IMG/VR virus record: IMGVR_UViG_3300026522_000024
Location: 52,105 to 116,104 of that record
Length of the DNA stretch: 64,000 bases
Direction: 5' to 3' (one strand)
From: a virus
Taxonomy: Duplodnaviria > Caudoviricetes
Of this stretch, positions 28,149 through 51,300 are shown piece after piece (within the stretch, counting starts at the first letter, position 1; each line of letters opens with the position of its first letter). Both the position numbers and the translations under genes were made by a program. The notes beneath the pieces were generated by a model. It searched no databases and was not told the DNA's origin. It saw only the letters and a program-made list of their open reading frames with translations.

Positions 28149-28159
28149 GGTGAAAACAC

Positions 28160-31149: not shown

Positions 31150-33285
31150 ATGGCAATCTTAACAAAACATCAAATCAGCGAACTTAATGACAGAATGTTG
31201 GGTCTTGGTGCTCCTGTACAGTTTGACGGCATCGGCTACAACAAGGTTGACTTCTCCAAGATGGAGAATCTTGGTGGGAATTACCACCTCACTGACCGCC
31301 AAGCATGGTTCGTCTGCTTGACTCTGCGTAAGTACAAGAAAACTCAGCTGACCCAGTGGGCAGACGATATTGAGGAAAGCATTACTGCTTACGAAGGTGC
31401 TAAGACTGTTAAGGTCAACCCAGTAGAGGTAGTAGGTGTAAGTGATACTCAGGTTAGCTTGACTTGGGCATTTGACCGTAAGGTGAGTGACCAGCTGAAA
31501 GGTAAGCTGGACAACACTCAGTACAAATGGACTAAGCCTAATGGGACTTGGGTACTGAACGTGAACTGGGGATATGCTGAGACCATCAATCAGTCTTTTG
31601 TATCCTTGGGGCTGGATACCACTGCTCTGGTAAAGGCTATCCAGCAGTACAACAGCCAGCCTCACCCTGTTAAGGTACAGAGCAAGCCCCATACTGCTCA
31701 CCAGATTGTTTTGGAAGTTAGCAGACTTCCTAAATCAGTGGACACCATTCAGATTAAGAGTGATTACGACAAAGCATTGGTATCTGCTTTCAAGTCTATT
31801 CCTAACATGTTCTGGGATAACAAGAAGAAGGTGTGGAACTGCTACATTGAAAATGCTGCTAAGTTGTATGATGCACTGCCTGATGGAGTAGTTGCTGACC
31901 AGTTGAAGCCTTGGGCAGACCTCACTAGGAACTGGAACAAGAAATACAACCTCTTAGACCTCAGCAAGCTCAACCTGAAATTCCAGCCATACTCCTTCCA
32001 GCCTGAAGATGCTCAGAGACTGATGAACCTCCAGACTGGTCTGAACGGAAATGAAGTAGGTTGCGGAAAGACTTTTGAGCAGGTTATCATTGGTGAATCC
32101 ATTCCTATGAAGAAACTGGTTATCTGCCCACCCACTCTTAGAGTAAACTGGGAAAGAGAAATCCACATGGTGAACGCAGATGCTGAAGTACATATTCAGT
32201 ATTCCAATAAGCCTTACAAGTCCGTTGATGGCTGGAATATCATTGGTTATCATAGCCTTGATAAATTTCAGAAGCAACTGGAGAAAGAGCAGTATCAGGT
32301 TATCATGATTGATGAGGCTCACTTCATCCAGGCAGTTAACAATTATGGTAATCCTGACAGCAAGAGAGCACTCGCAGTCCTGCGGTTGGCTGCTACTAGC
32401 CAGTATGTATTTCCTATTACTGGTACTCCTAAGACCAACAGAAACATCAATCTGTACAATATTCTCCGTGTTATCCGTCATCCACTTACCCGTGGGAACT
32501 GGGCATTTCAGAATTATGGTAAACACTTCTGCGATGGACAGAAAACTCAGTGGGGTTGGGACTACACTGGTAACAGCAATGACTCCGAACTCAATGAGCA
32601 GCTGAAGCCTGTTATGGTTAGACATCTGAAGAAGGATGTATTGCCTCACCTGAAGAAACAGCGTCAGGCTATCCCTGTAAGCGTAAACCTGTCTGAATAC
32701 CACTATCTCATCAGTGAGTATCTCAGGACTAGGAAGAACAAGAACAGTGAGTCCTTGGTACAGCTCAACAGAGCAAAGCAGGTTGTAGCTATTCAGAAGG
32801 CTCAGGAGTCCATAGCATTCGCTCAGGACATCATTTCTCAGGGTAAGAAGGTTGTTATTGTAACAGCATTCACTGAGGTAGTTGCTCAGGTTGAGAAGGC
32901 AATCAAGGGTTGCCTGAAGATTGTTGGAGGTATGAGCGATAAGGCTAAAAATGCAGCCATCGATGAATTCCAACATGGTACGGCTCAGGCTATTGTAATC
33001 AATATTGTAGCTGGTGGTACTGGTGTAACTTTGACTGCTGCTAGCACAATGATTGTAAACGATATACCCTGGACAACGGGAGAGTTAGAACAAGCAGAAG
33101 GACGCATCTGGCGTGGTGGTCAGAAGGAAACTGCTATGATTTACTACATTATGGCAGCTGGCTGTGAAATGGATGAAAAGTTGATTGACACTATTGTTTA
33201 CAAGTCTCAGACTATTAATGCAGCTGTGGACGGTGGTGTTGGTGAAGAGTTAGACCTCAGAGCAATTCTGGAGGCAGAACTATGA
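31150..33285 (+). CDS. SNF2-family helicase/translocase (SMARCAL1/HARP-like)
   Basis: EVGCGKT, VICP, DEAH, TGTP, GGTGVTLT, QAEGRIWRGGQ; HARP-like FKSIPNMFWDNKKKVW upstream. Confidence 0.92.
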   Translation: MAILTKHQISELNDRMLGLGAPVQFDGIGYNKVDFSKMENLGGNYHLTDRQAWFVCLTLRKYKKTQLTQWADDIEESITAYEGAKTVKVNPVEVVGVSDTQVSLTWAFDRKVSDQLKGKLDNTQYKWTKPNGTWVLNVNWGYAETINQSFVSLGLDTTALVKAIQQYNSQPHPVKVQSKPHTAHQIVLEVSRLPKSVDTIQIKSDYDKALVSAFKSIPNMFWDNKKKVWNCYIENAAKLYDALPDGVVADQLKPWADLTRNWNKKYNLLDLSKLNLKFQPYSFQPEDAQRLMNLQTGLNGNEVGCGKTFEQVIIGESIPMKKLVICPPTLRVNWEREIHMVNADAEVHIQYSNKPYKSVDGWNIIGYHSLDKFQKQLEKEQYQVIMIDEAHFIQAVNNYGNPDSKRALAVLRLAATSQYVFPITGTPKTNRNINLYNILRVIRHPLTRGNWAFQNYGKHFCDGQKTQWGWDYTGNSNDSELNEQLKPVMVRHLKKDVLPHLKKQRQAIPVSVNLSEYHYLISEYLRTRKNKNSESLVQLNRAKQVVAIQKAQESIAFAQDIISQGKKVVIVTAFTEVVAQVEKAIKGCLKIVGGMSDKAKNAAIDEFQHGTAQAIVINIVAGGTGVTLTAASTMIVNDIPWTTGELEQAEGRIWRGGQKETAMIYYIMAAGCEMDEKLIDTIVYKSQTINAAVDGGVGEELDLRAILEAEL

Positions 33286-33463: not shown

Positions 33464-34420
33464 ATGATAACACAGTTTGTAAACAAGGGTACAGACTTAG
33501 AGGTGCTGAATAAGTCCTATGAATCTATGCCTCTGGAACAAGAAGAACTTGCTAAGGCACTAAAGAAAGATGGTCTTGTACTGGTTGATGTACAGGTAAA
33601 TGGTAAGCATGGTACGTACACTCGTAAGCAGTGGAAGAAAGCTAGTGATGTAAAGAAGAATGAAGGAAAATCCTCTAAGGGTGCTCCAGATGCTGATAAG
33701 CAGAAGGCTATTCCACAGGTTATTAAGGGTAAGCACATGAGTGACCTGAAGGATAATCTGAGGGAACATGGTCTTGTTTTGGACGGTGCATATGGCAGAA
33801 AGATACGTGATGACGAAGAAGTTATTATGTATGATAAAGATAAGAATACTTACACTGCTAAAGCTAATGTATACTCAGATGGTGGTGTAGAACTGCGTAA
33901 AATTACCAAAGAAAAGAAGGAAAAAACAGCAACTGATAATGGTAATGGCAAGCAACAGGATAGCGGCAGCCCATATCCAGACTACGTGAACAAGACTAAT
34001 GTTGGAGTACCTAAAGCACATAGTTCCTCCTATTTCTCTGAGAAGAAGGCAATTGAGTTTGCTAAGCAATTGCATGATAATGGTGCTACTAATATTGAGA
34101 TTAGTAGTGCTGAAGATGCATTCAATCAGACTCAGTACCGTGTTGCTTGGGATAAGGAAGAAAAGAAACAGAGTGACACAAAGGCAGGTAATAAGCCTAC
34201 CAAGAAAGCAGCTGCTACTTCAAAAGTTAAACAGGATTCTTCATCTAATGTAAGTGTTCCTAAGACCAAAGCAGACATTCAAAGCATGCTTGCTTCTGGT
34301 AAATCCAGAAATGATATTATTGAGCTGGCTAAGAAGTCAGGCATCAGCTGGAAGGAAAATGGCCACGAAGGCATCAACTGGATGAGGTGCTGCATGGCTT
34401 TGACTAAGGCATCTAAATAA
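33464..34420 (+). CDS. Lys-rich protein with the shared N-terminal leader; putative internal virion protein
   Basis: QFVNKGTD..LNKS..LAKA..GLVLVDVQVNGKHGTYTRKQW; C-terminal GISW..H.GINWMR module. Confidence 0.75.
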   Translation: MITQFVNKGTDLEVLNKSYESMPLEQEELAKALKKDGLVLVDVQVNGKHGTYTRKQWKKASDVKKNEGKSSKGAPDADKQKAIPQVIKGKHMSDLKDNLREHGLVLDGAYGRKIRDDEEVIMYDKDKNTYTAKANVYSDGGVELRKITKEKKEKTATDNGNGKQQDSGSPYPDYVNKTNVGVPKAHSSSYFSEKKAIEFAKQLHDNGATNIEISSAEDAFNQTQYRVAWDKEEKKQSDTKAGNKPTKKAAATSKVKQDSSSNVSVPKTKADIQSMLASGKSRNDIIELAKKSGISWKENGHEGINWMRCCMALTKASK

Positions 34421-34439
34421 AGAGAAGGAGTGAGTAATA

Positions 34440-34943
34440 ATGGAACTGCATCCATTCACCAGAGCAGCAGCCTTGGCTGTTCTTATAGGAAACGATTTTT
34501 GGTACATGCATCTGTATGCTAAGGATGAAGACTTTGATAAATCACATCAGCTTACTGGTAATTACTATGACAGGTTAGGCTGGGAAAGTGATGAACTTAT
34601 GGAACTGTCCATAGAGGTCGGTGCTGAAGTATTCAATCCCTCTGAGGTAGGTAAGTGGTTGCCTGAGTACACTCCAGAGAGTGATAAGGCTTACAGCTAT
34701 GGAACAATTGTAACCAAAGCACAGGAAAAGCTCAGATTGTACCTTACAGCACTCAAAGCAATGAGAGATTCTACCAGCCGTACAGATATACAGTCTAGGC
34801 TGGATGAGTGCCTGCGTTACTGGGAGAAGGAACTCAACTACAAGTTGGCAGCCAGAGCAGGTCAGGCTGGTGTACCTTCTATGCTAGTTGGCTTTGTTAA
34901 CTCAGGTTTGGATAACGAACTTGCGTACAAATTTGCTGAATAA
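34440..34943 (+). CDS. Dps/ferritin-like four-helix-bundle protein
   Basis: YMHLYAKDEDFDKSHQLT..YYD....DELME resembles the Dps HW.v.G..F...H...e..y...D.laE pattern. Confidence 0.65.
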   Translation: MELHPFTRAAALAVLIGNDFWYMHLYAKDEDFDKSHQLTGNYYDRLGWESDELMELSIEVGAEVFNPSEVGKWLPEYTPESDKAYSYGTIVTKAQEKLRLYLTALKAMRDSTSRTDIQSRLDECLRYWEKELNYKLAARAGQAGVPSMLVGFVNSGLDNELAYKFAE

Positions 34944-35001
34944 CCAGATATTATCATACAGAAGTACACCAGACTCAATCATATAATTGGAGGTAAGAGA
35001 A

Positions 35002-35214
35002 ATGTTTAAGATAAAGCGTTGGAATAACAAGTACGGAAACGCAGCTAAGTTTGTTGTTTTCGATGAGAAAGCTGACAAGTATGCTGAGTTTTCACCATCC
35101 AATCCCAAGGATATTGCTTGGGTGTCCAGTGATATCACTAAGAATCCAGAGTACAAGTCCTGGGATGACTGGAAGGACGAACCAGTAGATAATCTTGGTG
35201 ATATCATCATGTAA
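35002..35214 (+). CDS. small hypothetical protein
   Basis: GGAGGT SD. Confidence 0.6.
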   Translation: MFKIKRWNNKYGNAAKFVVFDEKADKYAEFSPSNPKDIAWVSSDITKNPEYKSWDDWKDEPVDNLGDIIM

Positions 35215-35228
35215 AGGACTGATAGGTA

Positions 35229-36317
35229 ATGCATTTTATAAACAACCAATCAGACATCAATACTATCAATTTCCTGTCTAAGTCTATACCAATGGAAACC
35301 ATGGAAAAGGCACTAGATAGAACTGGTCTTGTACAGAAAGAGGTACAGTACAAGACCAGTACAGGAAAGATAGCTACTAGGAAGCAGTGGGTAAGAGAAG
35401 GAGAGGAACAGACTGCTGTTAAACCTCCTAAAAAGCAACCTAGACCGCAAGTTGAGGCTACTGACCACAACATAACGGAAAAGACTGCTCACCTGAAACC
35501 TCTTCAGGAAGGAGAAAAGCTGCCTGATTACTTTACTGGAGAGCATGCAGTACCTCCTAACTGGAGGAAGGTTATGTACAGTCCAGACCCAAATGCTAAT
35601 CTGTTAGCTATAGGTAAGGATGGACAGAACAGAACTGTATACTTGTACCATAAGGACTTTGTAGCTAGCAAGTCCAACGAGAAGTTTAGCAGAGTCAGAA
35701 ACTTGATGAAAAACCGTGACAATATCCTTAATTCAATTAAGGAGTTGAAAGAATCCAACCCAGAGGTGTCTGACTGCCTTAATCTTATATTCCATATGGG
35801 TACTAGACCTGGCAGCACAGCAGACACCAAGTCAGTGAAGGAAGCACGTGGGGCTACAACACTGAAGGGTGAGAACGTGGTTGTGGAAGGTGACAATGTA
35901 TACCTAGATTTCACAGGAAAGAAGGGTGTAGCACAGCGTCACAAGGTTACTGATTCCTACCTGAAGACTATGCTAGTACAGCGTAAAAAGAAGGCAGGAG
36001 ACAATGGTGACCTGTTCAATACCACGGATGACCAGCTTAGAAAAGCACTGAAACCTCTTGGACTTCACCCAAAAGATTTACGTACTATGTTAGCCACTCA
36101 TATGGCTAAGCAGATGCTCAAAGACCTTCCTGTAGCGAATAACGCAAAGGAAATGACTAAACTGCGTAACCAAGTAGGTGACAAAGTCTGCTCTGTACTA
36201 GGTAATCAGCGTACAATGGCTTTGAATAGCTACATAGACCCAGAAGTATTCATAGCTCATAGCCCAGACGGCATGAGTGACTGGAAGTCAAATCAATCCA
36301 AGAAGAAGGTGAAATAA
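35229..36317 (+). CDS. type IB DNA topoisomerase (bacterial/poxvirus-like) with the shared leader
   Basis: VPPNW, G.DGQNR..Y.Y, KFSR, TRPGS, GATTL, FTGKKG, KDLRT, LGN, catalytic SYIDP. Confidence 0.9.
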   Translation: MHFINNQSDINTINFLSKSIPMETMEKALDRTGLVQKEVQYKTSTGKIATRKQWVREGEEQTAVKPPKKQPRPQVEATDHNITEKTAHLKPLQEGEKLPDYFTGEHAVPPNWRKVMYSPDPNANLLAIGKDGQNRTVYLYHKDFVASKSNEKFSRVRNLMKNRDNILNSIKELKESNPEVSDCLNLIFHMGTRPGSTADTKSVKEARGATTLKGENVVVEGDNVYLDFTGKKGVAQRHKVTDSYLKTMLVQRKKKAGDNGDLFNTTDDQLRKALKPLGLHPKDLRTMLATHMAKQMLKDLPVANNAKEMTKLRNQVGDKVCSVLGNQRTMALNSYIDPEVFIAHSPDGMSDWKSNQSKKKVK

Positions 36318-36318
36318 C

Positions 36319-36462
36319 ATGAACTTAGACAACCTTACACCTGAGCAAATGACTCAAATGATGAAAGATTCTCTAAAACAACCTACAAAACCTATGACAC
36401 AGGAAGAGAAAGAGCAGGATGACGCAGAGCATGGTTATTTCCAAGAACCAGAACAGGAGTAA
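36319..36462 (+). CDS. 47-aa acidic protein directly after TopIB (not in the ORF track)
   Basis: AAGGTGA SD; MNLDNLTPEQ...DDAEHGYFQEPEQE*. Confidence 0.6.
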   Translation: MNLDNLTPEQMTQMMKDSLKQPTKPMTQEEKEQDDAEHGYFQEPEQE

Positions 36463-36916
36463 CGTAACATTGCGACATGTGAATCCTTGAAAACTTTACA
36501 TAAGTCAAAAATTGAAGGCATAGCTTTACATACAGCTGTGCCCTCTACTTTTATCTACTGGAACTGTAGATATGTGGTAAAATCACATCATGAAATACTT
36601 GACCGAAAATTTTTTTCGGTTGCCTTTTTTAACGTAAAAGAGTAAAAAAGTAAATAACCTTAATTTAATAAAAATACTAAGTTTCTTGTAAAATAAAAAG
36701 AATTAACCTTCTTTTTTACTAACGTAAAAAAGAACAGCACTTGCTGTTTTTACATGTGAATACTTGAATCTTTTTCATAAGCCAGAAAACTGATATGTAA
36801 ACCTCAAAAAATTCTATGAATAGATGATACACATTATGCAGGGTTCTGATTCACTATCCTTTGTAAAATGTACAGTTTTTACTTGAAAAATTTTATATGA
36901 ACTTTATTTTTTCTAC
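36463..36916. other. AT-rich non-coding region with imperfect direct repeats (possible origin or regulatory region)
   Basis: ACATGTGAAT[C/A]CTTGAA...CATAAG at 36475 and 36752; AACGTAAAA twice; A/T tracts; no ORF. Confidence 0.5.
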
Positions 36917-36945
36917 TTTACTCTTGGGATGAAAAGAGATATAAT
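36917..36945 (+). promoter_or_regulatory. host sigmaA-type (early) promoter
   Basis: TTTACT-17 bp-TATAAT. Confidence 0.7.
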
Positions 36946-37003
36946 GTTTTTAGGAACACCTTATGTAAACCACAAAGCAGTTGAGTGAAAAGGAGAGATT
37001 GCT

Positions 37004-37732
37004 ATGAAGAGTACAGAATTGAAAGAAAAGCTAGACAAAGCTATTGAAAGAGTCCACAAGATTGAGGGTACTATTGAGAGGCATAAGAAGCAGGCAGACA
37101 AAAAGCTCACGGAACTGAAGAAACATAACTGGTCTGATAATCCTATGGACCACTCAGGTACTGGAAACCACGAAGCATACTGGTTAGCTTGTGAATATCA
37201 GGATAAGCTGAGTGACATGAAGAATTCACAGAAAAATCTGATTAAGGCTCAAGAAATAGCTAAAAACTGGGAGGACAAGTACAACAAGCAGCTGGAACTA
37301 GAAAGACATTATCAGTTTGAGATACCTGAAGCCTTTAAGACATTGAAGGATATACTTGTAGAGAACTGGACTAAATTCGACTTAGAAGAACAGAAACACT
37401 ACTATAAGAAATACAAAGAGTTAGGGTACAAAACCTTCATCCAGCGTTATAGCAGGAGCAGATGGGACTACCTCAGAAGCCATAATGAACAAGATTTCAG
37501 AGAAGAAAATGAGAAAGCTGCAGAAAACTGGATTTTAGACCTGTATAATAGAATCAAGAGAGAAACAGGAGAGATTGTTACTTGGGATAACATCACAGCA
37601 ACTCCTAAAGGATTGAACGGATACATAAAAGGAAAGTTGGGAGCAGTCAACGTAGAGACCATTATGGCTGGTGGATATAACATCCAGAGACTTCATTACA
37701 GAGTAATTCTTCATAAGGTAAAGGAGGCATAA
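37004..37732 (+). CDS. conserved phage hypothetical protein (coiled-coil N-terminus)
   Basis: LNGYI.G..G...VETIMAGGYNIQRLHYR C-terminal motif; AAAAGGAG SD. Confidence 0.75.
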   Translation: MKSTELKEKLDKAIERVHKIEGTIERHKKQADKKLTELKKHNWSDNPMDHSGTGNHEAYWLACEYQDKLSDMKNSQKNLIKAQEIAKNWEDKYNKQLELERHYQFEIPEAFKTLKDILVENWTKFDLEEQKHYYKKYKELGYKTFIQRYSRSRWDYLRSHNEQDFREENEKAAENWILDLYNRIKRETGEIVTWDNITATPKGLNGYIKGKLGAVNVETIMAGGYNIQRLHYRVILHKVKEA

Positions 37733-37737
37733 CTCAG

Positions 37738-37920
37738 ATGAAAAATAACTGGAGAGTAGTTATCTATGATGACTCTATGAACACAGGTTGTACAGCAACT
37801 AAGGTATTCATGGATAACCTTAACAAAACCACCGCTAAGAAGATTGAGCGTTACATGAATCACAAGATGGAAGAGACAGAAATGTTTGATATCAGCTATG
37901 TAGCTGAAGAAGTGGCGTAA
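37738..37920 (+). CDS. small hypothetical protein
   Basis: AAGGAGG SD. Confidence 0.55.
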   Translation: MKNNWRVVIYDDSMNTGCTATKVFMDNLNKTTAKKIERYMNHKMEETEMFDISYVAEEVA

Positions 37921-38075
37921 TAACCTGCTGAGGTGAACCTTCAGACGGTTGATACTGGAAGGCAGCTGGGTGGTTTAGACATGTGGGCTGACCCACCCAG
38001 TTGATGATAACCAGATTGATACTGAATGTTTGGAACCATATAGCAGAGATTCCTCACACTAAGGGGGTAACAACA

Positions 38076-39932
38076 ATGAAAGACTATAAAAATCAGATAG
38101 CTGAATTGAAAGCAGACGTACACACCATCTGGAAACTGCAATGTCAGAACCTTTACAACAGCAAAAACCTTGGAGCATTGGCTGTACGTGAGTGCCTTCA
38201 GAATAGCATTGACGCTATAAGGACTGCTGAGAAGAACGGTGACATCGCTCAGGGTGAAGGATACATCAATATCAGCTGGGAGGGCAGCAACCTTATTATT
38301 GAGGATAATGGAGTAGGGATGAACCTTCAGACCTTACATGACAAGTTTCTAACCCTTGGTGGGACTACTAAGGGTGATGAGAGTAATGTAGGCGGATTTG
38401 GATTAGCTAAATCAGTTATCCTTGGATGCGGCAGTGGATTTAAGGTAGAAACCCAGGATAATGTGTTTACCAATGAAGACCTTGGTGTTAATCCTATACA
38501 GAAACAGGATTACAGACAAGGCACACGCATTACCTTGAAGAACGTACAAGTTGGTAAGGGTAAGAGCATAGAAGATGATTCCGATAGATTTAAATACGCT
38601 GTATACGATTATGTATTCACCAGCCAGATTCCTGAAGACATTAAGGTTACTGTAAATCATAAGGACTATGACTCCTATAAGAGATTTGTTCAGACTTCTT
38701 CTACTAGACGTGCACCTGCTGTATTTAACATTGGTAAAGACATCATACCAAAGAACACTAAAATCAGAGTAAATGTGTATAAGACCGCCAAGAATGATTT
38801 CTCTGGATACCTGTATGTTAGACTGAGAGGACTGACCCAATTCAAGCAATACCTTAGCTGGAATGCTACTTTTCATGTAGTGCTTGATATAGACACTAAG
38901 TTAGACCCACGTGACGTAGACTATCCATTCAGCACTAATAGAGAAGGACTGAAAGCACAGTATCAGGGTATTCTCTCAGCTATATCAGATAAGGTTAGTC
39001 AGTCACCAATTGCTATCTCAGACCACTCTAACTACAAGGAAACCTTCTATGATAACAAGACCAGCAATGCTGAGCGTAATAGAGTAATTGTTTCTCAGTT
39101 GATTTCTAAGGACTTGATGAAGGCTGCTAATACCGTATCTAAGGCAGTAGCTGGTATGATACCACAAGGAGGTTACACTGTTCCTTCTGTAGCTGAGAAA
39201 ATTCAGCAACTAAATGAAGTAGTAGAGAAGGTAGCACACGAATGTGGTAGGACTAAAGATGAAGTGGTCAATGGTTTGAGCACCGAAAATCTTCAGTCTT
39301 TGAACAATCCGTTGGATTACTCTTGGATTGTATGGCAGGATAAGGATACTCATGTTAAGAGGATAAACAGCAGCACTCAGGTCAGCTTTATATTGGCTTG
39401 GGACAGCATCCTGAGATTGATGGCTAGCCATTCTCCTGAGTTGAATGGAAAAACCTTCTACCCTGGTATCATCGTTAGGAAAGATTACATGGGATTGTGC
39501 TTAGAAAAGAACATAGCTTCTTGTGGCACTAGACACTACATTATGATGAATCCATATTTGATTCCTAATGACGATGACCTGTCTATAGCCTTATATTTGA
39601 TGAACTTGGCATCACACGAACTTGCTCATTTAGCTTGCGGAACATATGAGGCTCACGGTGAGACATTCTCCTATACTAGAGAATCCATCATGAATCACAA
39701 TTTGGTTAACGTGAATGCTGTAATGAAGATGCTGCGTAGCATGGGATTTAAGAAACTTCTCAATAAAGTAGAGCAGAAGAAGCAGTCTGAGGATTATTCT
39801 TATTTTACTTTGGACGACATTGTTGATATGGCAGAGAATAAGGGAATTGATGTACAGCAACTACAGGATAAGTATAGCAATCAACAGATTCTTAGGATGA
39901 GACTCATAATGGCTATCAAAAAAGCAGGTTAA
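38076..39932 (+). CDS. GHKL (HSP90/MORC-like) ATPase fused to a HExxH zincin-like domain
   Basis: RECLQNSIDA, IEDNGVGM, GGFGLAK, GTRI; C-terminal HELAH...H. Confidence 0.85.
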   Translation: MKDYKNQIAELKADVHTIWKLQCQNLYNSKNLGALAVRECLQNSIDAIRTAEKNGDIAQGEGYINISWEGSNLIIEDNGVGMNLQTLHDKFLTLGGTTKGDESNVGGFGLAKSVILGCGSGFKVETQDNVFTNEDLGVNPIQKQDYRQGTRITLKNVQVGKGKSIEDDSDRFKYAVYDYVFTSQIPEDIKVTVNHKDYDSYKRFVQTSSTRRAPAVFNIGKDIIPKNTKIRVNVYKTAKNDFSGYLYVRLRGLTQFKQYLSWNATFHVVLDIDTKLDPRDVDYPFSTNREGLKAQYQGILSAISDKVSQSPIAISDHSNYKETFYDNKTSNAERNRVIVSQLISKDLMKAANTVSKAVAGMIPQGGYTVPSVAEKIQQLNEVVEKVAHECGRTKDEVVNGLSTENLQSLNNPLDYSWIVWQDKDTHVKRINSSTQVSFILAWDSILRLMASHSPELNGKTFYPGIIVRKDYMGLCLEKNIASCGTRHYIMMNPYLIPNDDDLSIALYLMNLASHELAHLACGTYEAHGETFSYTRESIMNHNLVNVNAVMKMLRSMGFKKLLNKVEQKKQSEDYSYFTLDDIVDMAENKGIDVQQLQDKYSNQQILRMRLIMAIKKAG

Positions 39933-39941
39933 CACGGATTT

Positions 39942-39970
39942 GGCGGCAGTACATACTGCCGCCTTTATTT
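39942..39970 (+). terminator. rho-independent terminator
   Basis: GGCGGCAGT-acat-ACTGCCGCC followed by TTTATTT. Confidence 0.75.
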
Positions 39971-40008
39971 ATATTATTTACTATATGTGTTTGAAAGGTG
40001 TGTGGAAT

Positions 40009-40224
40009 ATGCCTAAGATTATAATTGAATCCTCTGATAAGAGAGATACACAAGTAGATATAGAGGAAAAGCTAGAAAAGGCAGTGTCTGCCATTAGAGA
40101 ACAACGTGAAGGAAAGCAATTTACAGACAATTTTCTTAGGGAAACTAAGGAAAAAGCTGATGTAGTAGTCAATAAGTTGTTTTCTAACATGGTCAAGGAA
40201 ATCAATGAAGTATTAGCGAAATGA
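40009..40224 (+). CDS. small helical hypothetical protein
   Basis: AAAGGTG SD; contains LEKA. Confidence 0.6.
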   Translation: MPKIIIESSDKRDTQVDIEEKLEKAVSAIREQREGKQFTDNFLRETKEKADVVVNKLFSNMVKEINEVLAK

Positions 40225-40233
40225 GGGAAAACC

Positions 40234-41358
40234 ATGGGAATCAACTTTGTAGATAAAGGCTCAGACTCAGCTCTAGTCAATCTTCTTCATGAAGACTACT
40301 TGAAAAAGTCATTTCATCGTGAAGGATTGACTCCAGTTAGAGTGTCTGTTAATGGAAAACATGGTAATTACACTACTACTGTGTATAAGAATCTAAATGA
40401 ACACGGAAAGCAGGTCAGTAAAAACAAGCCTAGATTCAATCCTGATAAGGGTAAGAACACAGCTAGTAAGCTACAGAATAAGGACTTTATGTACATGAAT
40501 ACAGCTACTGGTGATATATTATCACTGGATGAGGTAAAACGTGAGTACAATCAACTTCCTGAAAAGGAAAAGAAATCACATAAAACTCTTGATAGTTACC
40601 TAAAATCCACTTATTTTATTTCAAATGGAACTAACAAGACTTGTGATATGTACAGGATTGCTCCTGGCAAGTACACTAAGGAAAGAACACAGGCAGTCCA
40701 TGAACCCATAGTACAAGATTATCTATCTAAAGCACAGGATGCTCCAGAAGATACCCCACCAATACTTTTCTTGTATGGCGGTGGAAGCGGCGTAGGCAAG
40801 TCCACAATAGTCAACTCTATAGTGAAGCCTATGTCTGATGAGTTAGGAGTAAACCTACTCAAAGTAGACTGTGATGACATTAAGGAGTTGCTTCCAGAGC
40901 ATGAAATGTTTATGGCTCAAGATGAGCGTACTGCTGCTGGTAGGTTACACAGAGAATCTTCAGATATTACCAATAAGGTAATAGATGAGCTCACTAAGGC
41001 TAAAAAGTGCTTTGCATATGATGGTTGCATGGGAGACACTTCTAAGTACCAGAAAATTATCAATAAAGCTAGAGATAATGGATATTACGTACATATCATA
41101 GCAGCAGATATTCCAGTAGATATGGCTATTGCTCGTGCTAAATCAAGGAGCAGAAAGATTGATGACGCTATATTCCATAAGACTCATACTGCTTTTGGAA
41201 ATAATTTTTTGGATATAGCAGGGATGGCTGATTCGTTTGCGCTGTATGACAATTCTCAGGATAGTAATTTGCCACCTACATTAATTGTAGATGATACTGG
41301 AATACGCAATGAAGAACTTTATGAGCGTTTTCTTATGAAAACAGATGGGGAGGCATAA
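40234..41358 (+). CDS. zeta-toxin (PezT)-like P-loop kinase with the shared leader
   Basis: GGGSGVGKST, VDCDDIKELLP, HRES, AYDG, AIARAKSR, LYDNS. Confidence 0.85.
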   Translation: MGINFVDKGSDSALVNLLHEDYLKKSFHREGLTPVRVSVNGKHGNYTTTVYKNLNEHGKQVSKNKPRFNPDKGKNTASKLQNKDFMYMNTATGDILSLDEVKREYNQLPEKEKKSHKTLDSYLKSTYFISNGTNKTCDMYRIAPGKYTKERTQAVHEPIVQDYLSKAQDAPEDTPPILFLYGGGSGVGKSTIVNSIVKPMSDELGVNLLKVDCDDIKELLPEHEMFMAQDERTAAGRLHRESSDITNKVIDELTKAKKCFAYDGCMGDTSKYQKIINKARDNGYYVHIIAADIPVDMAIARAKSRSRKIDDAIFHKTHTAFGNNFLDIAGMADSFALYDNSQDSNLPPTLIVDDTGIRNEELYERFLMKTDGEA

Positions 41359-41360
41359 AT

Positions 41361-41525
41361 ATGAGCACTAAGACCTTTAATAAAGAAAACATTGTAGCCT
41401 TGCGTAAGAAATATGAGAAAAACCCTGTTCAGCAAGATTTTGCTAACGACAAGTCAGTGTTTGAGTTTCCAGATGACATAACTGATGAGGAACTGGATAA
41501 ACACATTGAGAGAATGAAATCATAA
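41361..41525 (+). CDS. 54-aa protein directly after the zeta-like kinase (candidate antitoxin; not in the ORF track)
   Basis: GGGGAGG SD; MSTKTFNK...DDITDEELDKHIERMKS*. Confidence 0.65.
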   Translation: MSTKTFNKENIVALRKKYEKNPVQQDFANDKSVFEFPDDITDEELDKHIERMKS

Positions 41526-41544
41526 TAATTGGAGGAGATAAATC

Positions 41545-44500
41545 ATGATAAGGACTACAGATATTGCTTCCTATCTTGTAGACAAGGCTAAGTTAGACCT
41601 AATGGGTGGTAGCTCCAATCTGGAAAAAGCACAGAGAGATTATTCTAAGCTGGTAAAGGTGCGTAGACCAGTAACACGTAAGGGTAAGACCTTTATGCAA
41701 GACATATGGGTGCTGCCAGGTCAGGTTAAGTCATCAGATGTGGTTCTTCAGAACAAGCATAATGTCATTCCTTCTCTTAGTAGCCTCACTAAGCCATCTG
41801 CTGGTATTTTGGATATGAAGTATTTTGCTGCTTTGGAGAACACTGATAGAACTAAAGCAATGGATTACTTGAAAGACCTTGGATTTACATGGAAGGTAAA
41901 TAGCAATCCTAGTATAAACTGGATGTGGGCTAAGAGTGCTCTTAATAAATTCCTGAATGCTAATCCTTCTTTTAAGACCACCGCAGGTTCAATTTCTGGG
42001 TTGGTAGGTGGTCAGACTCAGGTTACTTCTCAGGCAACCAACGTAACAACGCAAATTGCTCAGAATAAGACACCTTCTACGGTGAATACGGCAACCATGA
42101 TGTCTTCTTTTACGCCTCAGCAGCAAGCAGAGATTAATGCTTGTGCTAATGGTAAAGAAAAATTCTCTAAGATTCGTGAAATTCTTGGTAAAGATGGAGT
42201 GATATCTTGGGCGAAGGCTAATGGTATTACTTGGAATGAGCATGCTCATAATGCTATTAATCTTATGAGACTTGGTATGGCTGTTAGGGAATGCTTTGAT
42301 GCTATAAATGGGACAGTGTCTCCTGGTCCAATATCTAAGACTCCTACTAAGAAACAGCCTGCACCTGCTGCTCCTAAAATAGACCCAGATGAACTGCCTG
42401 TGCCTGCTAATGCTACAGAGCGTACTAAGAATTTGATTAAACACATAAATAACATGACAAGTGTAGCTGAGATTACTGATTGTACTAAGATGGGTATGGT
42501 TCCAGAAGATGATGTAGCTAAGTCGTTTATTCTTGAGAAATTCCTTCCTTCATTTAAGTTATGGGTAGGTGGTGGTGCTCCTAAATCTGTTAAGGATAAA
42601 TGGGCAAAAGATACTGGTTCTAGTGCTTCTTCTATAAATACTTATGCTAAGACTCCATGTGATTGGGGTGAGAGAGCAGTAGATACTATGAAGTTGGCTG
42701 GGTATAAAAAAGATATGGCTTCACATAATATTAGTATCTCTTTTTCTGGATTTACTATGGGTAAAATGCTTTCTCCTAGACAATACATGGTATTTAAAGA
42801 CCACAATAAAATGCTGCATTTTGGTAAATCATCAGAAAAGCCATTTGATATTATCAACAGCTTGAATGATACTTATTCTGACTATACAACCGATGATTAC
42901 AAAACTACTGACTCTTGGGGTACTACCATTAACCTCTACCCAACTAATCTTGGATATACTGGTTTAGACCCAGCTGAATACAGGAAAAAGTACAATATAG
43001 AAAAAGAAGGTTTTGTTAGATACCTCAGAAGAGTGCAAAAATCTAATCCAGGTTTGAGTTCTACAGTTCAGGAAATGATAACTACGTATGATGAGACTAT
43101 GAAATTGGCTGGATATAATCCTAATTTGCTTTCATATGTTCAGAAAAATGATTGGGATGATACAGCTCAACCTACATACTGGTCTTCAAGATTTGATAGT
43201 AGTTTAAGGTTAAATAATTTTTCTCCAGCTGATGCAAAAAAAGCTGTAGAAATCATAGAATTACAGTATAACACAGTTATTTCTGAATTAGAAAAAGCTG
43301 GTTATTCACAACAGGTTATTGCTGATACCTTGGGTTACAAATGGGGTTCAGGCTATCTTGATAACTTTAAGGTAGTTGATAGAAGTTCAGGTTCTACCTC
43401 CACTCTTGCTACTCTAAATATAGCTAATTTGTTACCAGATGAAGCTAAAAGATGGAATTACGCAGCAGCTTCATATGCTTATTGCAGATACTGCAAGGAA
43501 AACGGTATAGAAAATAAATCTGGTAATGGGACAAAAGAGTATGCTTGGTTGGAGCAGGTAAAGCAATTATCTCAGATGGATAAAGTTACATATGAAAAGA
43601 TTAACTCTAATTTAGAGAAACTGTATGGCTTTAGCAATAATAATGGCGTAATACAACCTACAGATAACAAGGACTATGACTCAATTTGGAGTAACCTTAT
43701 TTTAACAAGTAATATGGTTGATATGCACCACAAAATGGCAGTTTCAGCTAGAAGTAATACTGCTAGTCCCTTGAATAAAAGGGGAACAGAATATCAAGGT
43801 AATTATGATTATTATAGTGGTATGGCTATGAAAGATGATGCTAAAATGCGTATAAAGCAGTATGGTAACTATACTGGGAGTACTGCTTCTACGTATTCCA
43901 TAAAGGAACTTTCTGATAAAATTCAGAGCCAGCTTGATGAGGCACCAGTTGTTACAACCAAGTATCTTGATGACTTACGTAACTACTATACTAACAAGTA
44001 TCTTGATGACTTACGTAACTACTATACTAATCAGACACAAAGTCAGAATATTCCAGTTGATTCTTCTGCTGTTGCTAACCAAGCAGATAAGGATACCATG
44101 TGGAAGGCTGACTACGATAAGGAGAGTAATGAAACTCCATCTAAGGATATAGCTCAAATGATTTATCTTCAGGTAGCAAAGCATATTCCTAAGATGGCTG
44201 AATCCTCTAATCTTGAACAAAAACTTAACAAAAACTTTGATTATGTTCCGTTTGATTTCTCTACTAATGTACAACCAAGGTTTAACAAGCCTAAGAAAAC
44301 TGCTACTAGCAACACAACTAAGTCTGACCTTAGAAAAGCCAGAGAGGAATTGCTGAGTAAAGCTAAGTGTAGTATAGGCACAGAAGATGATGCTACATCT
44401 TTGGATATGAGAAAAGACTTCCTGAAGCGTTGGGATTATAAGGCAGGAGAGAAGACACCTGGTGGAACAGTAATGAGTGGCAGAGTGCACTCTGGTCCAA

Positions 44501-45144
44501 ACGCACCTCATGGTGACCAGAGGGCTTTGTTCAACTCCAGATTTTTCGCTGTAAGGAATAGTGTCTTTGAAGATAGGTTCAATAAAGAGCAGGAAAGACT
44601 GAAAGGTGCTTCTACTGACTCTAAGACCTATACTCCACTGGAAGTATTCCATGGCACTTCATATGGGTGTGCTCCTAACATCATAGGGCGTGAAGGAGAA
44701 TTCTTTATGGGAGGCAGCTACACTAAGGCTGGTAAGATGCTTGGAAATGGTGTCTATGTAGCTAATAAGGGTGGCAAGTCCTCAGTTTATATTGGTAATT
44801 CTTCATATGCTAATCGTCAGATTCACACAAGTCCTGGTGACGCAGACGGAATTATGATGTGTCTTACAGTTATGAGAGGTGATAACTATAAGTCAAGAGG
44901 TAATGGATTCTATGGTAATAGCTCAGACCCATCAATTACTTCTCTGGAGCAGGATGCTGGTTCATTGAATGACTGGGAAATGGCTGTAAAGCGTAATGAG
45001 CTGGTATTCCCACATCACTTTGTAGATATTTCTAGTAGGGTAATTGGTAAGAATGTTACCAGAGACTCAATTACTGGAGAATACAAAGATAACGTCAGTG
45101 GAAACACTTATGATAAATATGGAACTCTTAAAGGGATGAAATAG
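41545..45144 (+). CDS. 1199-aa multidomain protein: shared leader, two small repeat modules, C-terminal PARP-like (H-Y-E) ADP-ribosyltransferase
   Basis: VFHGTS, GKMLGNGVYVA...KS..Y, GIMMCLTVMRG, DWEMAV..LVFPHHFV. Confidence 0.8.
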   Translation: MIRTTDIASYLVDKAKLDLMGGSSNLEKAQRDYSKLVKVRRPVTRKGKTFMQDIWVLPGQVKSSDVVLQNKHNVIPSLSSLTKPSAGILDMKYFAALENTDRTKAMDYLKDLGFTWKVNSNPSINWMWAKSALNKFLNANPSFKTTAGSISGLVGGQTQVTSQATNVTTQIAQNKTPSTVNTATMMSSFTPQQQAEINACANGKEKFSKIREILGKDGVISWAKANGITWNEHAHNAINLMRLGMAVRECFDAINGTVSPGPISKTPTKKQPAPAAPKIDPDELPVPANATERTKNLIKHINNMTSVAEITDCTKMGMVPEDDVAKSFILEKFLPSFKLWVGGGAPKSVKDKWAKDTGSSASSINTYAKTPCDWGERAVDTMKLAGYKKDMASHNISISFSGFTMGKMLSPRQYMVFKDHNKMLHFGKSSEKPFDIINSLNDTYSDYTTDDYKTTDSWGTTINLYPTNLGYTGLDPAEYRKKYNIEKEGFVRYLRRVQKSNPGLSSTVQEMITTYDETMKLAGYNPNLLSYVQKNDWDDTAQPTYWSSRFDSSLRLNNFSPADAKKAVEIIELQYNTVISELEKAGYSQQVIADTLGYKWGSGYLDNFKVVDRSSGSTSTLATLNIANLLPDEAKRWNYAAASYAYCRYCKENGIENKSGNGTKEYAWLEQVKQLSQMDKVTYEKINSNLEKLYGFSNNNGVIQPTDNKDYDSIWSNLILTSNMVDMHHKMAVSARSNTASPLNKRGTEYQGNYDYYSGMAMKDDAKMRIKQYGNYTGSTASTYSIKELSDKIQSQLDEAPVVTTKYLDDLRNYYTNKYLDDLRNYYTNQTQSQNIPVDSSAVANQADKDTMWKADYDKESNETPSKDIAQMIYLQVAKHIPKMAESSNLEQKLNKNFDYVPFDFSTNVQPRFNKPKKTATSNTTKSDLRKAREELLSKAKCSIGTEDDATSLDMRKDFLKRWDYKAGEKTPGGTVMSGRVHSGPNAPHGDQRALFNSRFFAVRNSVFEDRFNKEQERLKGASTDSKTYTPLEVFHGTSYGCAPNIIGREGEFFMGGSYTKAGKMLGNGVYVANKGGKSSVYIGNSSYANRQIHTSPGDADGIMMCLTVMRGDNYKSRGNGFYGNSSDPSITSLEQDAGSLNDWEMAVKRNELVFPHHFVDISSRVIGKNVTRDSITGEYKDNVSGNTYDKYGTLKGMK
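43959..44030 (+). repeat. perfect 36-bp in-frame tandem duplication (KYLDDLRNYYTN x2)
   Basis: CAAGTATCTTGATGACTTACGTAACTACTATACTAA twice. Confidence 0.95.
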
Positions 45145-45157
45145 GAGGTAGTTAACA

Positions 45158-45469
45158 ATGATGAAGAAACTTATCAGGCACATTAACTTTATTGGGCACG
45201 AAATCAATCAGTCCATAGAGGACTATCCTGAGTCTGACAGAGAGGTTTTCTGTAAGAAACTTCATACTATAAAAGAGCCAGATGAGGCAGACTGTATGAA
45301 TTGTCCTTACTTTGGTGGTATGGGTCAGGGAACTGCTCATGAGTGCGTATGGGAAGAACCAGTAGATATAAGCTCAGAACTGGTCATGTACATTGAGCAT
45401 AAAGATAGACAGAAGGAAATGATGCGAGTATCCGAAATGATTGATGCTGGTGTCATCCAGAAGGGATAA
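45158..45469 (+). CDS. small Cys-containing protein after the ART gene (candidate immunity protein)
   Basis: AGGAGGT SD; C..CMNCP..C. Confidence 0.65.
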   Translation: MMKKLIRHINFIGHEINQSIEDYPESDREVFCKKLHTIKEPDEADCMNCPYFGGMGQGTAHECVWEEPVDISSELVMYIEHKDRQKEMMRVSEMIDAGVIQKG

Positions 45470-45475
45470 TAGAAT

Positions 45476-46321
45476 ATGGCAACAAGACTTACAGCAGCAC
45501 AGATACGTCAGATAAAAGACATAATCAGTAATCACATGGAAGTCTTGGGGCAGATTATGGTAGGGGAAGGTAAGCCTTCCCCTGCTTTAATTAGAAAGTT
45601 AGGACTGCCCAAGGAACTGACGTCTTTAGTGACAACTGCATACAAATATGGAAAACTGAGCATATTACAGGGTAAAGACCTGTCTACTATGAGTGCTTCA
45701 GAAGTACAAAATCTCATGAGAAAGATTCAGCTTACACCAGCACAGCAGCAATCTGTAGAGCAGATAAAGCTCAAAGCACAGACTAACATAGACTCAATTG
45801 GTCAACGTATTACATCTACAGTAATGAATGCTGCCTTACAGTCTGATTTACAGATGTGGCAAGCTATTAAGGAAGTAATACCTGCTGCTATAGAGAATGA
45901 CACTCCAAGGTATAAAGTCATTCAAATGCTTAGGGAAAAGACTGGTGATATGGCTAGGGATTGGCACAGAGTAGCACATACAGAGTTATTTGACGCTAAA
46001 TTACAAGGTGAAGCTGAAGCTATTTTGGATAATAAAAGTCCTTTGTCTTCACAAGGGGCTGAAACTCTTGTATATAAAAAGCCCGCCCCCACAGCCTGCC
46101 CAAAGTGTAAGCAGCTGTATTTAGAAAGTGACGGTGTGACTCCTAGGGTATTCAAAATCTCAGAACTCATGGCTAATGGTAACAACTATGGCAAGAAACA
46201 GGCAGACTGGAAGCCTACTCTTGGCACACTTCATCCAAATTGTATGTGCACTCTGAATGTAAAACCACCTGATACAGAGTTTGACTCACATGGAAACCTT
46301 ATTTATAAACCACGCAAGTAA
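45476..46321 (+). CDS. MuF-like head morphogenesis / minor head protein
   Basis: RDWHRVAHTE, ACPKC, LHPNCMC; adjacent to the portal. Confidence 0.8.
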   Translation: MATRLTAAQIRQIKDIISNHMEVLGQIMVGEGKPSPALIRKLGLPKELTSLVTTAYKYGKLSILQGKDLSTMSASEVQNLMRKIQLTPAQQQSVEQIKLKAQTNIDSIGQRITSTVMNAALQSDLQMWQAIKEVIPAAIENDTPRYKVIQMLREKTGDMARDWHRVAHTELFDAKLQGEAEAILDNKSPLSSQGAETLVYKKPAPTACPKCKQLYLESDGVTPRVFKISELMANGNNYGKKQADWKPTLGTLHPNCMCTLNVKPPDTEFDSHGNLIYKPRK

Positions 46322-46356: not shown

Positions 46357-47988
46357 ATGGCTGTAAAAGTAAAGTTAGTTGGAGCACCCGTATCTAATTC
46401 TGCTCCCAATACCAAGATTATAAAATCTAACAGTTATTCTTCCACTAATACTATAGATTTGGTGAAAGGTATACCAGCTGAAGATTTGAAGGCATATTAC
46501 GAAAATCCAATAAGACTGGCGTCAGCTATGAATTATAAGGATAAGCCATCAAGTCTTTCTTACAACATATTGTATCAGATGAGCGTAAAGAACAGTGTTA
46601 TTGCAGCAGTCATCAATACACGTGTTAATCAGGTATCAACTTTTACCAAGCCTAAGAGGTTTTCTACTGATGGTATAGGCTTTGAGGTGCGTCTCAGAGA
46701 CCCACAGGCAGTACCTACTAAAGAGCAGCAAGAAGTCATTAAGTCATTAGAAATGTTCCTAGAGAACTGTGGTTATAAGAACGACAATGATACTGATGAC
46801 TTTGATACATTCATACGTAAGATTGTTCGAGACAGCCTTACTTATGACCAGGCATGCTTTGAGGTAGTACCAGATAGGAAGGGTAAGCCAGCTCAAATAC
46901 TGGCTGTGGATGCTTCTACTATAAGGGCTGCTAGTGAGGACTATCAGGACAATACCATATGGTCCAAAAATCCTCCTAAGAAGAATGAGAAGGTGTCTTG
47001 GGTACAGGTTATAGATGGTACTGTAGTAAGCTGGTTTACCGCTAATGAAATGGCATTTGGGGTACGTAACCCACGTTCCAATATAAACCTTCAGCCATAT
47101 GGCTTCAGTGAATTGGAACAGCTTATACAGCAAATCACATCACACCTGTATGCTGAAGAATACAACAGTAAATTCTTCTCTCAGGGTGGCACTACGAAGG
47201 GTATTATCAATATAAAGTCTGACCCTAACGGTATAGGGAATAAGGAGCAACTTGACTCATTTAAGAGACAGTGGAGAGCACAAGTAAATGGTATGGCTGG
47301 CGCTTGGAAAACTCCAGTACTTCAGGTACCACAGGGTATAGAGTACATAAATGTGTCTCAATCTAATAGAGACATGGAATTTAATCAGTGGATGAATTAC
47401 CTGATTAACATTGTGTGTGCTGTATACGCTATAGACCCAGCTGAAATTAACTTTGCTAATAATGGCGGTGCTGCTGGACAGAGCAGTGTATTTGAATCCT
47501 CTCAGGAACAAAAGCTGAAGAATTCTAAGGATAAAGGCTTGAAACCTCTGTTAAGATTTGTAGAAACCATCATTAACAAGTTTGTTATTTCCAGATTTTC
47601 TGCTGAATACGTATTCTCATTTACAGGATTGGATGAGAAGTCTGAAGAGGAAAAAGCTGAGTTAGAGACAAAGCAGTCTAAAGTTTGGAAAACTGTAAAT
47701 GAGATACGTAAGGAACACGGAGAAAAGCCCATAGATGACGGTGACGTAATTCTGGATGCTAGCTGGATTAACTATCACCAGCAGACCCAGATGGCTGCTC
47801 AACAGCAGGAAATGATGGCTGGTGAAGGTGACGAAGGTGATGAATACTCTGATGAAGAAGATACTGAGGGGTATTCTGAGCCTGAAGAGTACAGTGAAGA
47901 GCAACCCTCAGAAGAAGGTTATGAAGAGGATTCTGAGGAAAATACCGAAAAATCAATGTCTAAACTTATAATAACCATAGATGATTAA
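46357..47988 (+). CDS. portal protein
   Basis: AVINTRVNQV, VRDSLTYDQ, AVDASTI, YGFSELE, FFSQGGTTKGI, DMEF.QW, SKDKGLKPLL. Confidence 0.95.
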   Translation: MAVKVKLVGAPVSNSAPNTKIIKSNSYSSTNTIDLVKGIPAEDLKAYYENPIRLASAMNYKDKPSSLSYNILYQMSVKNSVIAAVINTRVNQVSTFTKPKRFSTDGIGFEVRLRDPQAVPTKEQQEVIKSLEMFLENCGYKNDNDTDDFDTFIRKIVRDSLTYDQACFEVVPDRKGKPAQILAVDASTIRAASEDYQDNTIWSKNPPKKNEKVSWVQVIDGTVVSWFTANEMAFGVRNPRSNINLQPYGFSELEQLIQQITSHLYAEEYNSKFFSQGGTTKGIINIKSDPNGIGNKEQLDSFKRQWRAQVNGMAGAWKTPVLQVPQGIEYINVSQSNRDMEFNQWMNYLINIVCAVYAIDPAEINFANNGGAAGQSSVFESSQEQKLKNSKDKGLKPLLRFVETIINKFVISRFSAEYVFSFTGLDEKSEEEKAELETKQSKVWKTVNEIRKEHGEKPIDDGDVILDASWINYHQQTQMAAQQQEMMAGEGDEGDEYSDEEDTEGYSEPEEYSEEQPSEEGYEEDSEENTEKSMSKLIITIDD

Positions 47989-51263: not shown

Positions 51264-51300
51264 GGTTTAACACCTACAAACCTATACTCACAAACCAAAA

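Follow-up and report, generated by a model that had tools for sequence, protein, structure and literature searches.

In this work we analyse four proteins, A, B, C and D, which carry a common N-terminal leader and are encoded directly upstream of the portal gene of an uncultured virus (IMG/VR record IMGVR_UViG_3300026522_000024). The stretch of DNA under study, called the window throughout, has a length of 64,000 nucleotides and represents the right half (52105-116104) of the complete 116,104-bp genome, which has direct terminal repeats. Its capsid protein is approximately 58% identical to the capsids of SPO1, CP-51 and other Spounavirinae, and the virus is therefore regarded as an uncultured SPO1-like myovirus of the rumen; bovine gut metagenomes and metatranscriptomes contain the same DNA. 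All genes of the block are located on the plus strand, in the order TerL, SNF2, A, p167, type IB topoisomerase (TopIB, protein B), an insert, C, D, p103, a 281-residue protein, and the portal onward. In the following list positions are those of the window, ORF stands for open reading frame and E for the expectation value of a match.

29138-30805, plus strand: TerL
31150-33285, plus strand: SNF2 helicase
33464-34420, plus strand: protein A, 318 residues, with the leader in residues 1-65 (33464-33658)
34440-34943, plus strand: p167, a possible Dps/ferritin-like protein, without leader in this genome (phrog_3636 'DNA binding protein', E 2e-4)
35229-36317, plus strand: protein B, a type IB topoisomerase by family match, with the leader in residues 1-63 (35229-35417)
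36319-36462, plus strand: acidic ORF of 47 residues, beginning right after the TopIB stop codon
37004-39932, plus strand: insert without leader, comprising p242, a 60-residue ORF and a GHKL/HATPase protein of 643 residues
40234-41358, plus strand: protein C, a zeta-toxin-like P-loop kinase by family match, with the leader in residues 1-60 (40234-40413)
41361-41525, plus strand: ORF of 54 residues directly 3' of the zeta-like gene
41545-45144, plus strand: protein D, 1199 residues, with a divergent leader in residues ~1-68 (41545-41748)
45158-45469, plus strand: p103, a Cys/His-containing protein, which follows D-type genes in the related loci L010, L011, L012, L013 and L015
45476-46321, plus strand: 281-residue protein without family match, kept directly 5' of the portal gene
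46357-47988, plus strand: portal protein (Pfam Phage_portal, E 2e-29; phrog_12, E 3e-70)
48036-48806, plus strand: prohead protease (phrog_1028 head maturation protease, E 2e-81)
48822-49748, plus strand: scaffolding protein (phrog_15087, E 5e-14)
49821-51263, plus strand: major capsid protein (phrog_752, E 2e-129)

A previous reading of this DNA, made from its letters and hereafter called the sequence-only reading, gave correct coordinates and reading frames. It also placed the block correctly, directly 5' of the portal, protease and capsid genes, while its MuF label for 45476-46321 finds no support: searches of Pfam, PHROG and NCBIfam, the MuF domain included, return no match for the 281-residue protein. 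Pfam has no match for the prohead protease of the window itself, and a homologue of it shows a weak Peptidase_S78 match. By its family matches, 48036-48806 is assigned as an HK97-type (S78) prohead protease.

The central observation concerns the N-termini. BLASTP aligns the leaders of A and C over 83 residues with 35% identity (E 2e-9) and those of A and B with E 1e-7, and in both pairs the similarity is confined to the first 65-83 residues. The leader of D has no BLASTP match with the A leader and is missed by a hidden Markov model (HMM) built from A, B and C. When the ORFs of the genome are searched with an HMM of the whole family (155 sequences), only A, B and C score better than D (E 0.027, residues 24-66). 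A D-type relative, L010:4010, has a leader that is 61% identical to residues 36-68 of D (E 4e-12) and can be aligned with the A leader over all 65 residues of the latter (E 1e-6). Homologues of the D body carry the leader at their N-terminus in L010, L011, L006, L017, L021 and L022 (E 4e-17 to 9e-5), and one further copy among them is weak (E 2e-3). Since D is joined through an intermediate and its relatives have clear leaders, we assign A, B, C and D to one leader family by these similarities, with D as a divergent or degenerate member. The common leader suggested for the four proteins by the sequence-only reading is thus borne out. The similarity of D and A that is seen at BLAST level is due to an HeH-like module, GI[ST]W..INxMR, and not to the leader.

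The module consists of four parts. An N-terminal peptide with the consensus F-[VI]-N-x-G-x-D-x-x-x-L-K-S is followed by a variable linker, a helix of the form [DE]-[DE]-L-x-K-A-[ML]-[ND]-[KR]-x-G, and a long basic beta-hairpin, L-V-Q-K-E-V-Q-V-x-G-K-N-G-x-x-T-R-K-Q-W-V-[KR]-A-[SG]-[DE], which is the best-conserved portion. This is in good accordance with the architecture described beforehand, i.e., a box followed by LxK[AS] and by a hairpin with W at its end, when the box is written as F[VI][ND]xGxD. In an AlphaFold2 model from 50 aligned leaders, helices are predicted at residues 10-21 and 25-34 and a beta-hairpin at 38-47/50-59, with a predicted local distance difference test (pLDDT) value of ~90. 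The parts are separable. Proteins of the CP-51 type and of the D type have only a peptide of 9-16 residues ending in D-[LI]-x-K-[AS] ahead of the hairpin, and homologues of p167 in L010 (2433-2987) and L011 (2542-3039) have the N-peptide only, in the form F-I-N-x-G-x-D-x-A-L-V-[KN]. The assignment of p167 homologues as ferritin-like is a weak one, with matches to Pfam Ferritin at E 0.0025 and 0.056, both below the cut-off.

No family of Pfam or NCBIfam covers the module, and no function-annotated family of PHROG does so; its PHROG matches are families of unknown function and a single 'virion structural protein' family (E 4e-4). Foldseek finds nothing in the PDB at E<=0.001 for the leader model, and an Atlas feature search with it gives no usable match. 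Two candidate identities were rejected: the HicA toxin, with E 0.079 and a His column with 105 N and 38 H among the 156 sequences, and PT-HINT, with E 0.005-0.03 only, where the match is of low complexity after the hairpin and has no Hint core. The capsid is absent from the matches of the whole-leader HMMs among the genome ORFs up to E 10, a search in which the N-part alone was not used. The motif E-L-x-K-A-L is the sole element shared by the leader and the capsid propeptide.

A profile of A, B and C was searched against 1.84 billion representative proteins and returned 220 protein clusters at E<=1e-3, 79 of them at E<=1e-10. We examined 156 family proteins, which are 50-1043 residues long, one spurious match aside. 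In 145 of them the module starts at most 12 residues from the N-terminus. When the HeH module, present in 96 of these 145 bodies, is masked, BLAST sorts the bodies into 34 groups, 28 of which are singletons and may in part be fragments from contig edges. A single A-type group accounts for 100 of the 145; the others include six zeta bodies, four TopIB bodies, one papain-fold glutamine-deamidase toxin (Gln_amidase, E 7e-16) and ~30 small or single groups. By this grouping one leader is found on unrelated bodies, yet one non-enzymatic body dominates the family. The 'interchangeable enzymes' of the sequence-only reading therefore hold in that the bodies differ (zeta, TopIB, glutamine deamidase) and not in that they are enzymes throughout, as about two thirds are A-type HeH bodies. 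Its forecast that an HMM search would return diverse bodies from the block of head genes came true.

The position of the genes is as constant as that of the module. The genome has four copies of the leader only, all within 12 kb directly 5' of the portal block. In all 12 related loci with recognisable neighbours, the interval from TerL/SNF2 to the portal gene contains the leader genes, two to six in each locus; leader genes with identifiable neighbours are found in this interval in L005, L006, L009-L013, L015, L021 and L022, and L012 has one leader gene between the 281-residue gene and the portal gene. The cultured phages CP-51, JL, Shanette, S4-1 and vB_EalM-132 have three to four copies of the core each, and for CP-51 and vB_EalM-132, whose records were examined, three of them are directly 5' of the portal gene. 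Neither tblastn of the A leader nor megablast of the gene block gave a match among GenBank phages, and scans of IMG/VR and JGI gave 3 and 9 loci only.

Behind the leaders, the four bodies of the window could be characterised to a different degree. Protein B is assigned as a type IB topoisomerase (Pfam Topoisom_I, E 3e-15, 56.6 bits at a cut-off of 23.7; Top1B_N_bact, E 3e-6). It has the motif NSYIDPEV at residue 333, and we take the Tyr in S-Y-I-D-P to be the catalytic residue from knowledge of this motif. Protein C is assigned as a Zeta toxin/AAA_33 kinase (Pfam Zeta_toxin, E 8e-22, 78 bits at a cut-off of 22.3) with the Walker A motif GGGSGVGKST at residue 182, and shows weak similarity to polynucleotide kinases (phrog_505, E 9e-5). 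Protein D probably ends in a PARP-like ADP-ribosyltransferase domain of the H-Y-E type (residues ~1035-1150). The match to PARP is below the cut-off (E 0.014), the Atlas score to PARP clusters is 0.95, and HG[TS]SY, GxGxY and E-x-x-V are conserved in seven of eight D homologues; AlphaFold2 with the eight homologues gave no usable fold for this region (pLDDT 36), and phmmer found no match to it among the PDB sequences. Among the enzyme labels proposed earlier, TopIB and the zeta-like kinase hold with Pfam scores above cut-off, and that of D relies on the sub-threshold PARP match, the Atlas lead and the H-Y-E pattern. Protein A had been counted as an enzyme as well, but no enzyme body is recognisable in it. 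Its body is lysine-rich and carries the HeH-like module in its C-terminal part (residues ~276-315).

The HeH-like module, G-I-[ST]-W..I-N-x-M-R..M-A, is small and helical. It is located at 34291-34408 in A, twice in D (residues 102-135, 41848-41949, and residues 216-247, 42190-42285) and, in a weaker form, at the C-terminus of the GHKL ATPase (39750-39929). It corresponds to PF26856 (Phage_SPO1_gp51) and to 'transcriptional regulator' families of PHROG, and a weak precomputed PF26856 match is on record for an A orthologue.

The helix of the leader contains a motif that recurs in the head proteins. HK97 gp5 and Cps of A511 are reported to mature between K and S, and the sequence-only reading names the same maturation for A511/K-type capsid precursors. 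In the window, the motif [LIMVF]xK[AS] is found 10 times in the scaffold, with 1.5 expected from shuffled sequences (z 7.2, rank 1 of 132 ORFs), six times in the protease (1.05 expected, z 4.7, rank 2 of 132) and five times in the zeta-like protein C (1.3 expected, rank 4 of 132). The scaffolds of relatives, which are just 26-44% identical, retain 8-14 such sites. If a hydrophobic residue is required after A/S, the scaffold holds seven of the 60 sites of the whole proteome, and A and B have two sites each inside their first 33 residues; the sites of A are LNKS at residue 15, LAKA at 29 and WKKA at 57. The N-terminal region of the capsid has a single site, L-N-K-A at residues 26-29 (49896-49907), and an L-x-K-A at about residue 27 is present in 120 of 120 relatives. 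The presence of the motif in the capsid N-terminus, scaffold and protease had been stated in the sequence-only reading, and in the latter two it is well above chance.

Within the leader, the K of the motif is present in 154 and the A/S in 153 of the 156 sequences. The motif is kept in 10 of the 11 most divergent leaders, which are of the CP-51 and D types, with 9-16 residues ahead of it. A candidate site after the N-peptide is less conserved (K in 57 of 156), and the W-V-K-A site after the hairpin is lost from D-type and CP-51-type leaders. In T4 (motif L-x-E) and in phiKZ-like phages (x-x-E), the scaffold has many sites, the protease has self-sites and the capsid propeptide has one (PMC3012670, PMC10052503). 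As the same pattern of many scaffold sites, protease self-sites and one propeptide site is met here, we infer cleavage after K in hydrophobic-x-K-[A/S] for the HK97-type protease of this lineage.

Our favoured reading, to which we give a probability of roughly 0.5, is that the module serves the internal head (ejection) proteins of a clade of SPO1-like myoviruses as an N-terminal address domain. The leader proteins would be made alongside the head proteins and would co-assemble into the prohead via the module. The HK97-type prohead protease would cut after the lysine of hydrophobic-x-K-[A/S] in the leader, as it would do at the same motif in the scaffold with its many sites, in its own chain and in the propeptide of the capsid. 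Inside the head the cargo would be kept until it exits with the DNA at the next infection. In this genome it would comprise the HeH DNA-binding protein A, TopIB, the zeta-like kinase and the PARP-like giant D, and elsewhere the glutamine-deamidase toxin and a ParB nuclease. Trimmed cargo would retain the basic hairpin and remain with the DNA; as the sole site conserved in all leader subtypes sits just before the hairpin, mature cargo would probably still bear it.

The steps of this reading differ in strength. For packaging of the leader proteins in the head we see about even odds, and cleavage at the site before the hairpin is a more tentative suggestion. The N-peptide found by itself on ferritin-like p167 homologues is what would be expected of a separable tag. 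The sequence-only reading had called the leader an address tag which is clipped and lets the cargo be ejected with the genome. The module is real, widespread and nearly always N-terminal, belongs to genes of the head block and shares its motif with head proteins, while packaging, clipping and ejection are steps that we infer.

Several points weigh against the address domain. AlphaFold2 places the L-x-K-A of the leader inside a helix that packs ahead of the hairpin, and its invariance could therefore be structural or due to contacts with DNA. In a zeta-type relative (L021) the hairpin begins at residue 4 with no motif ahead. The cleavage specificity assumed for the protease derives entirely from motif statistics, and the module is undetectable in SPO1, K and A511 themselves. 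Two further points also favour a different explanation. The module is internal in a ParB-like protein and in P0105 and duplicated in L019, and the bodies are largely related to DNA (TopIB, ParB nuclease, HeH, phrog_505-like kinase, PARP-like protein). For the latter reason, a plain small DNA-binding domain is a serious rival: two helices and a hairpin 'wing' would tether the proteins to phage or host DNA, with neither packaging nor cleavage.

This would be in good agreement with the basic hairpin as the most conserved part of the module. Atlas neighbours of the leader include helix-turn-helix and winged-helix clusters, besides ribosomal L25, with TM ~0.5, a value of little meaning at such a length. 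A tethering domain would leave unexplained, however, why the module is N-terminal in 145 of 156 proteins, why its genes are confined to the block between terminase and portal, why the N-peptide occurs separately on a ferritin-like protein, and why the invariant L-x-K-[AS] equals the motif of scaffold, protease and capsid propeptide. In addition, no significant match of fold or sequence to a known DNA-binding domain was obtained. We consider this explanation unlikely, though it is the one that survives best beside the address domain.

More improbable still is a docking domain for a partner outside the head, either an adjacent chaperone or immunity protein or a host target such as RNA polymerase, by which enzymes of host takeover would be coordinated. 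Small ORFs follow TopIB, the zeta-like gene and D (36319-36462, 41361-41525 and 45158-45469), p103 always comes after D-type genes, and the Pfam family of the HeH-like module in A and D has its name from the SPO1 host-takeover protein gp51. These small ORFs are mutually unrelated, however, whereas the leader is the same. The host-takeover genes of SPO1-type phages are early genes of the terminal-repeat region and do not sit in the head block, and the motif statistics would be left unexplained. Finally, a chance resemblance or compositional artefact of lysine-rich N-termini, in favour of which one could cite the lack of significant similarity between D alone and A, B or C, is ruled out for practical purposes by the pairwise E-values of 2e-9 and 1e-7, the 79 database clusters at E<=1e-10 and the transitive link of D (E 4e-12 and 1e-6).

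Returning to the address domain, the layout of the block shows how far leader genes and head genes may be expressed together. Terminator-like hairpins at 33292, 36517/36600 and 39942 split it into three units. The first comprises A, p167 and TopIB. The p242-HATPase insert without leader forms the second, with a sigma-70-like promoter of its own (36917-36945) and a strong terminator (39942-39963). The third begins at ~40000, includes C, D and p103, and extends at least as far as the 281-residue gene and the beginning of the portal gene. On the plus strand, the scan, which ended at 47900, gave no terminator-like site from 39963 onward, so that C, D, p103, the 281-residue gene and the 5' end of the portal gene seem to make up a single transcription unit; its continuation beyond 47900 through portal, protease, scaffold and capsid is assumed. 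Contigs from RNA libraries cover the block, which can neither show timing nor exclude DNA carry-over. Three metatranscriptome studies yield contigs that end at 39934-39938, and contigs from two begin again at 40001-40002, a gap that is bridged by a DNA contig. This hints weakly at a working terminator at 39942 and at a transcript start near 40001. Metatranscriptome contigs also end or start at 51285-51295, after the capsid gene, where DNA contigs continue. The promoter motif AACTGATATGTA has two occurrences only, which is chance level, and sigma-70-like sites are not enriched.

Some features of the neighbourhood are worth recording. The region 36318-37003, which includes the promoter of the second unit at its 3' side, is an AT-rich spacer of 686 bp, largely non-coding, with two terminator-like hairpins 5' of the sigma-70-like promoter and two copies of a ~40-nt element (ACATGTGAAT.CTTGAA...CATAAG). 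One small ORF is located 3' of each of TopIB, the zeta-like gene and D, and these ORFs may encode chaperones or immunity proteins; L005 has a 46-residue gene at the position of the ORF at 36319-36462. The location of p167 next to an A-type gene is a conserved arrangement. Within D, an exact tandem duplication of 36 bp (12 residues, KYLDDLRNYYTN) is found at 43958-43995 (residue 806). Its copy number appears to differ among strains, because assemblies break there and one RNA-library contig is without one copy. Upstream of TerL, at 27489-29125, a glutamine amidotransferase gene (GATase_6) lies directly 5' of the genes for a PF18724 (ADDT) protein and TerL, an arrangement which suggests that the DNA of this phage may contain a hypermodified base.

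In cultured relatives, the module is also found in other contexts. Gene 00044 of vB_EalM-132 (L007, 925-3996) encodes a protein of 1023 residues, annotated as a ParB-like partition nuclease, with an internal leader core; its homologues in JL and Shanette, likewise of about 1000 residues, have such a core as well. This core is preceded by V-E-K-S and L-V-K-S, and the protein may represent a polyprotein processed into several parts. In EalM132_00060, the module stands ahead of a C-terminal part that matches phrog_4611 'minor head protein' (E 3e-8). The independence of MuF fusion claimed in the sequence-only reading thus applies to A-D, which have no MuF domain, and is qualified by this protein.

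Our broader proposal is that a large clade of SPO1-like phages of Firmicutes uses one protease-processed tag, distinct from MuF and from the capsid-targeting sequence (CTS) of T4, to load changing toxins and DNA enzymes for injection. The tag would consist of a separable peptide of 15 residues and a hairpin domain, with ferritin-like cargo in some members. We put this forward tentatively. If true, it would be the first defined head-targeting signal of SPO1-like (Herelleviridae-type) myoviruses of Gram-positive bacteria. The occurrence of a zeta kinase, a PARP-like transferase, a glutamine deamidase, a ParB nuclease and TopIB in a structural operon would be accounted for, and the tag would give a simple sequence rule to predict injected proteins in hundreds of uncultured rumen and gut phages. 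The block would then be an exchangeable effector cassette and the tag a portable one for proteins of choice, directly usable for the packaging of foreign proteins. The reading yields a testable specificity of the prohead protease for this lineage, i.e., cleavage after K in hydrophobic-x-K-A/S, and the cultured carriers of the module (CP-51, JL, Shanette, S4-1 and vB_EalM-132) make testing practical.

Among known systems, the CTS of the T4 proteins IPI-III and Alt resembles the module as a short N-terminal leader on unrelated cargo, which in T4 includes an ADP-ribosyltransferase. The CTS ends in a prohead-protease motif of which the scaffold has many further copies and the capsid propeptide one, and its internal-protein cargo is injected with the DNA (PMC3012670, PMC9026906). 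The two are not related in sequence. The T4 motif is L/I-x-E with cleavage after E, compared to hydrophobic-x-K-[A/S] here, and the T4 protease is of the gp21 type, compared to the HK97 type (S78-like). Unlike the CTS, the present leader has ~65 residues with a conserved hairpin that is predicted to fold and probably kept on the cargo, and it is known here from its sequence.

The Dar system of P1 (DarA, DarB, Hdf, Ulx) builds enzymes and anti-defence proteins into the head during morphogenesis, with some N-terminal packaging determinants, protease processing and genes linked to head morphogenesis (PMC5512222, PMC9024508, PMC12810830). It differs from the module in the lack of homology and of a leader common to all cargo, in its Gram-negative host and in another lineage of capsid and protease. 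MuF-fused toxins and polyvalent proteins bring zeta, ADP-ribosyltransferase, ParB nuclease and papain-fold toxins next to portal/MuF genes, with proposed delivery from the head (PMC5576092, PMC5512222). The cargo types found here (zeta, PARP-like, Gln_amidase, ParB nuclease, TopIB) match the effector repertoire of polyvalent proteins (PMC5512222). In contrast to these systems, they are mostly separate genes with a small leader each, and not C-terminal MuF fusions or long chains. Family searches of A, B, C and D give no MuF domain, which places these proteins outside the MuF-fused toxins. Polyvalent proteins have at least two effector domains, whereas a single enzymatic domain is present in B and in C, and D shows one candidate that can be recognised. 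In CP-51-type phages, the ParB-like protein with its internal module may qualify as polyvalent; the survey of such proteins makes no mention of CP-51 or SPO1 (PMC5512222).

In phiKZ and SPN3US, the prohead protease processes many inner-body and ejection proteins, and the simple motif at which it does so is present in scaffold-like proteins as well (PMC5694885, PMC10052503). Here the differences lie in the motif, [S/A/G]-x-E, in propeptides that are not one conserved module, and in the nature of these phages as jumbo phages of Gram-negative hosts. Encapsulin cargo-loading peptides are short and separable, and address ferritin-like and other cargo into a shell of the HK97 fold. The N-peptide that stands alone on the tentatively ferritin-like p167 homologue of two relatives is reminiscent of them, while encapsulin tags are usually C-terminal, uncleaved and unrelated in sequence. 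By analogy, the closest functional likeness of the module would be to the CTS and internal proteins of T4, with a looser one to P1 Dar and to phiKZ/SPN3US, and by sequence it is a member of none of these systems.

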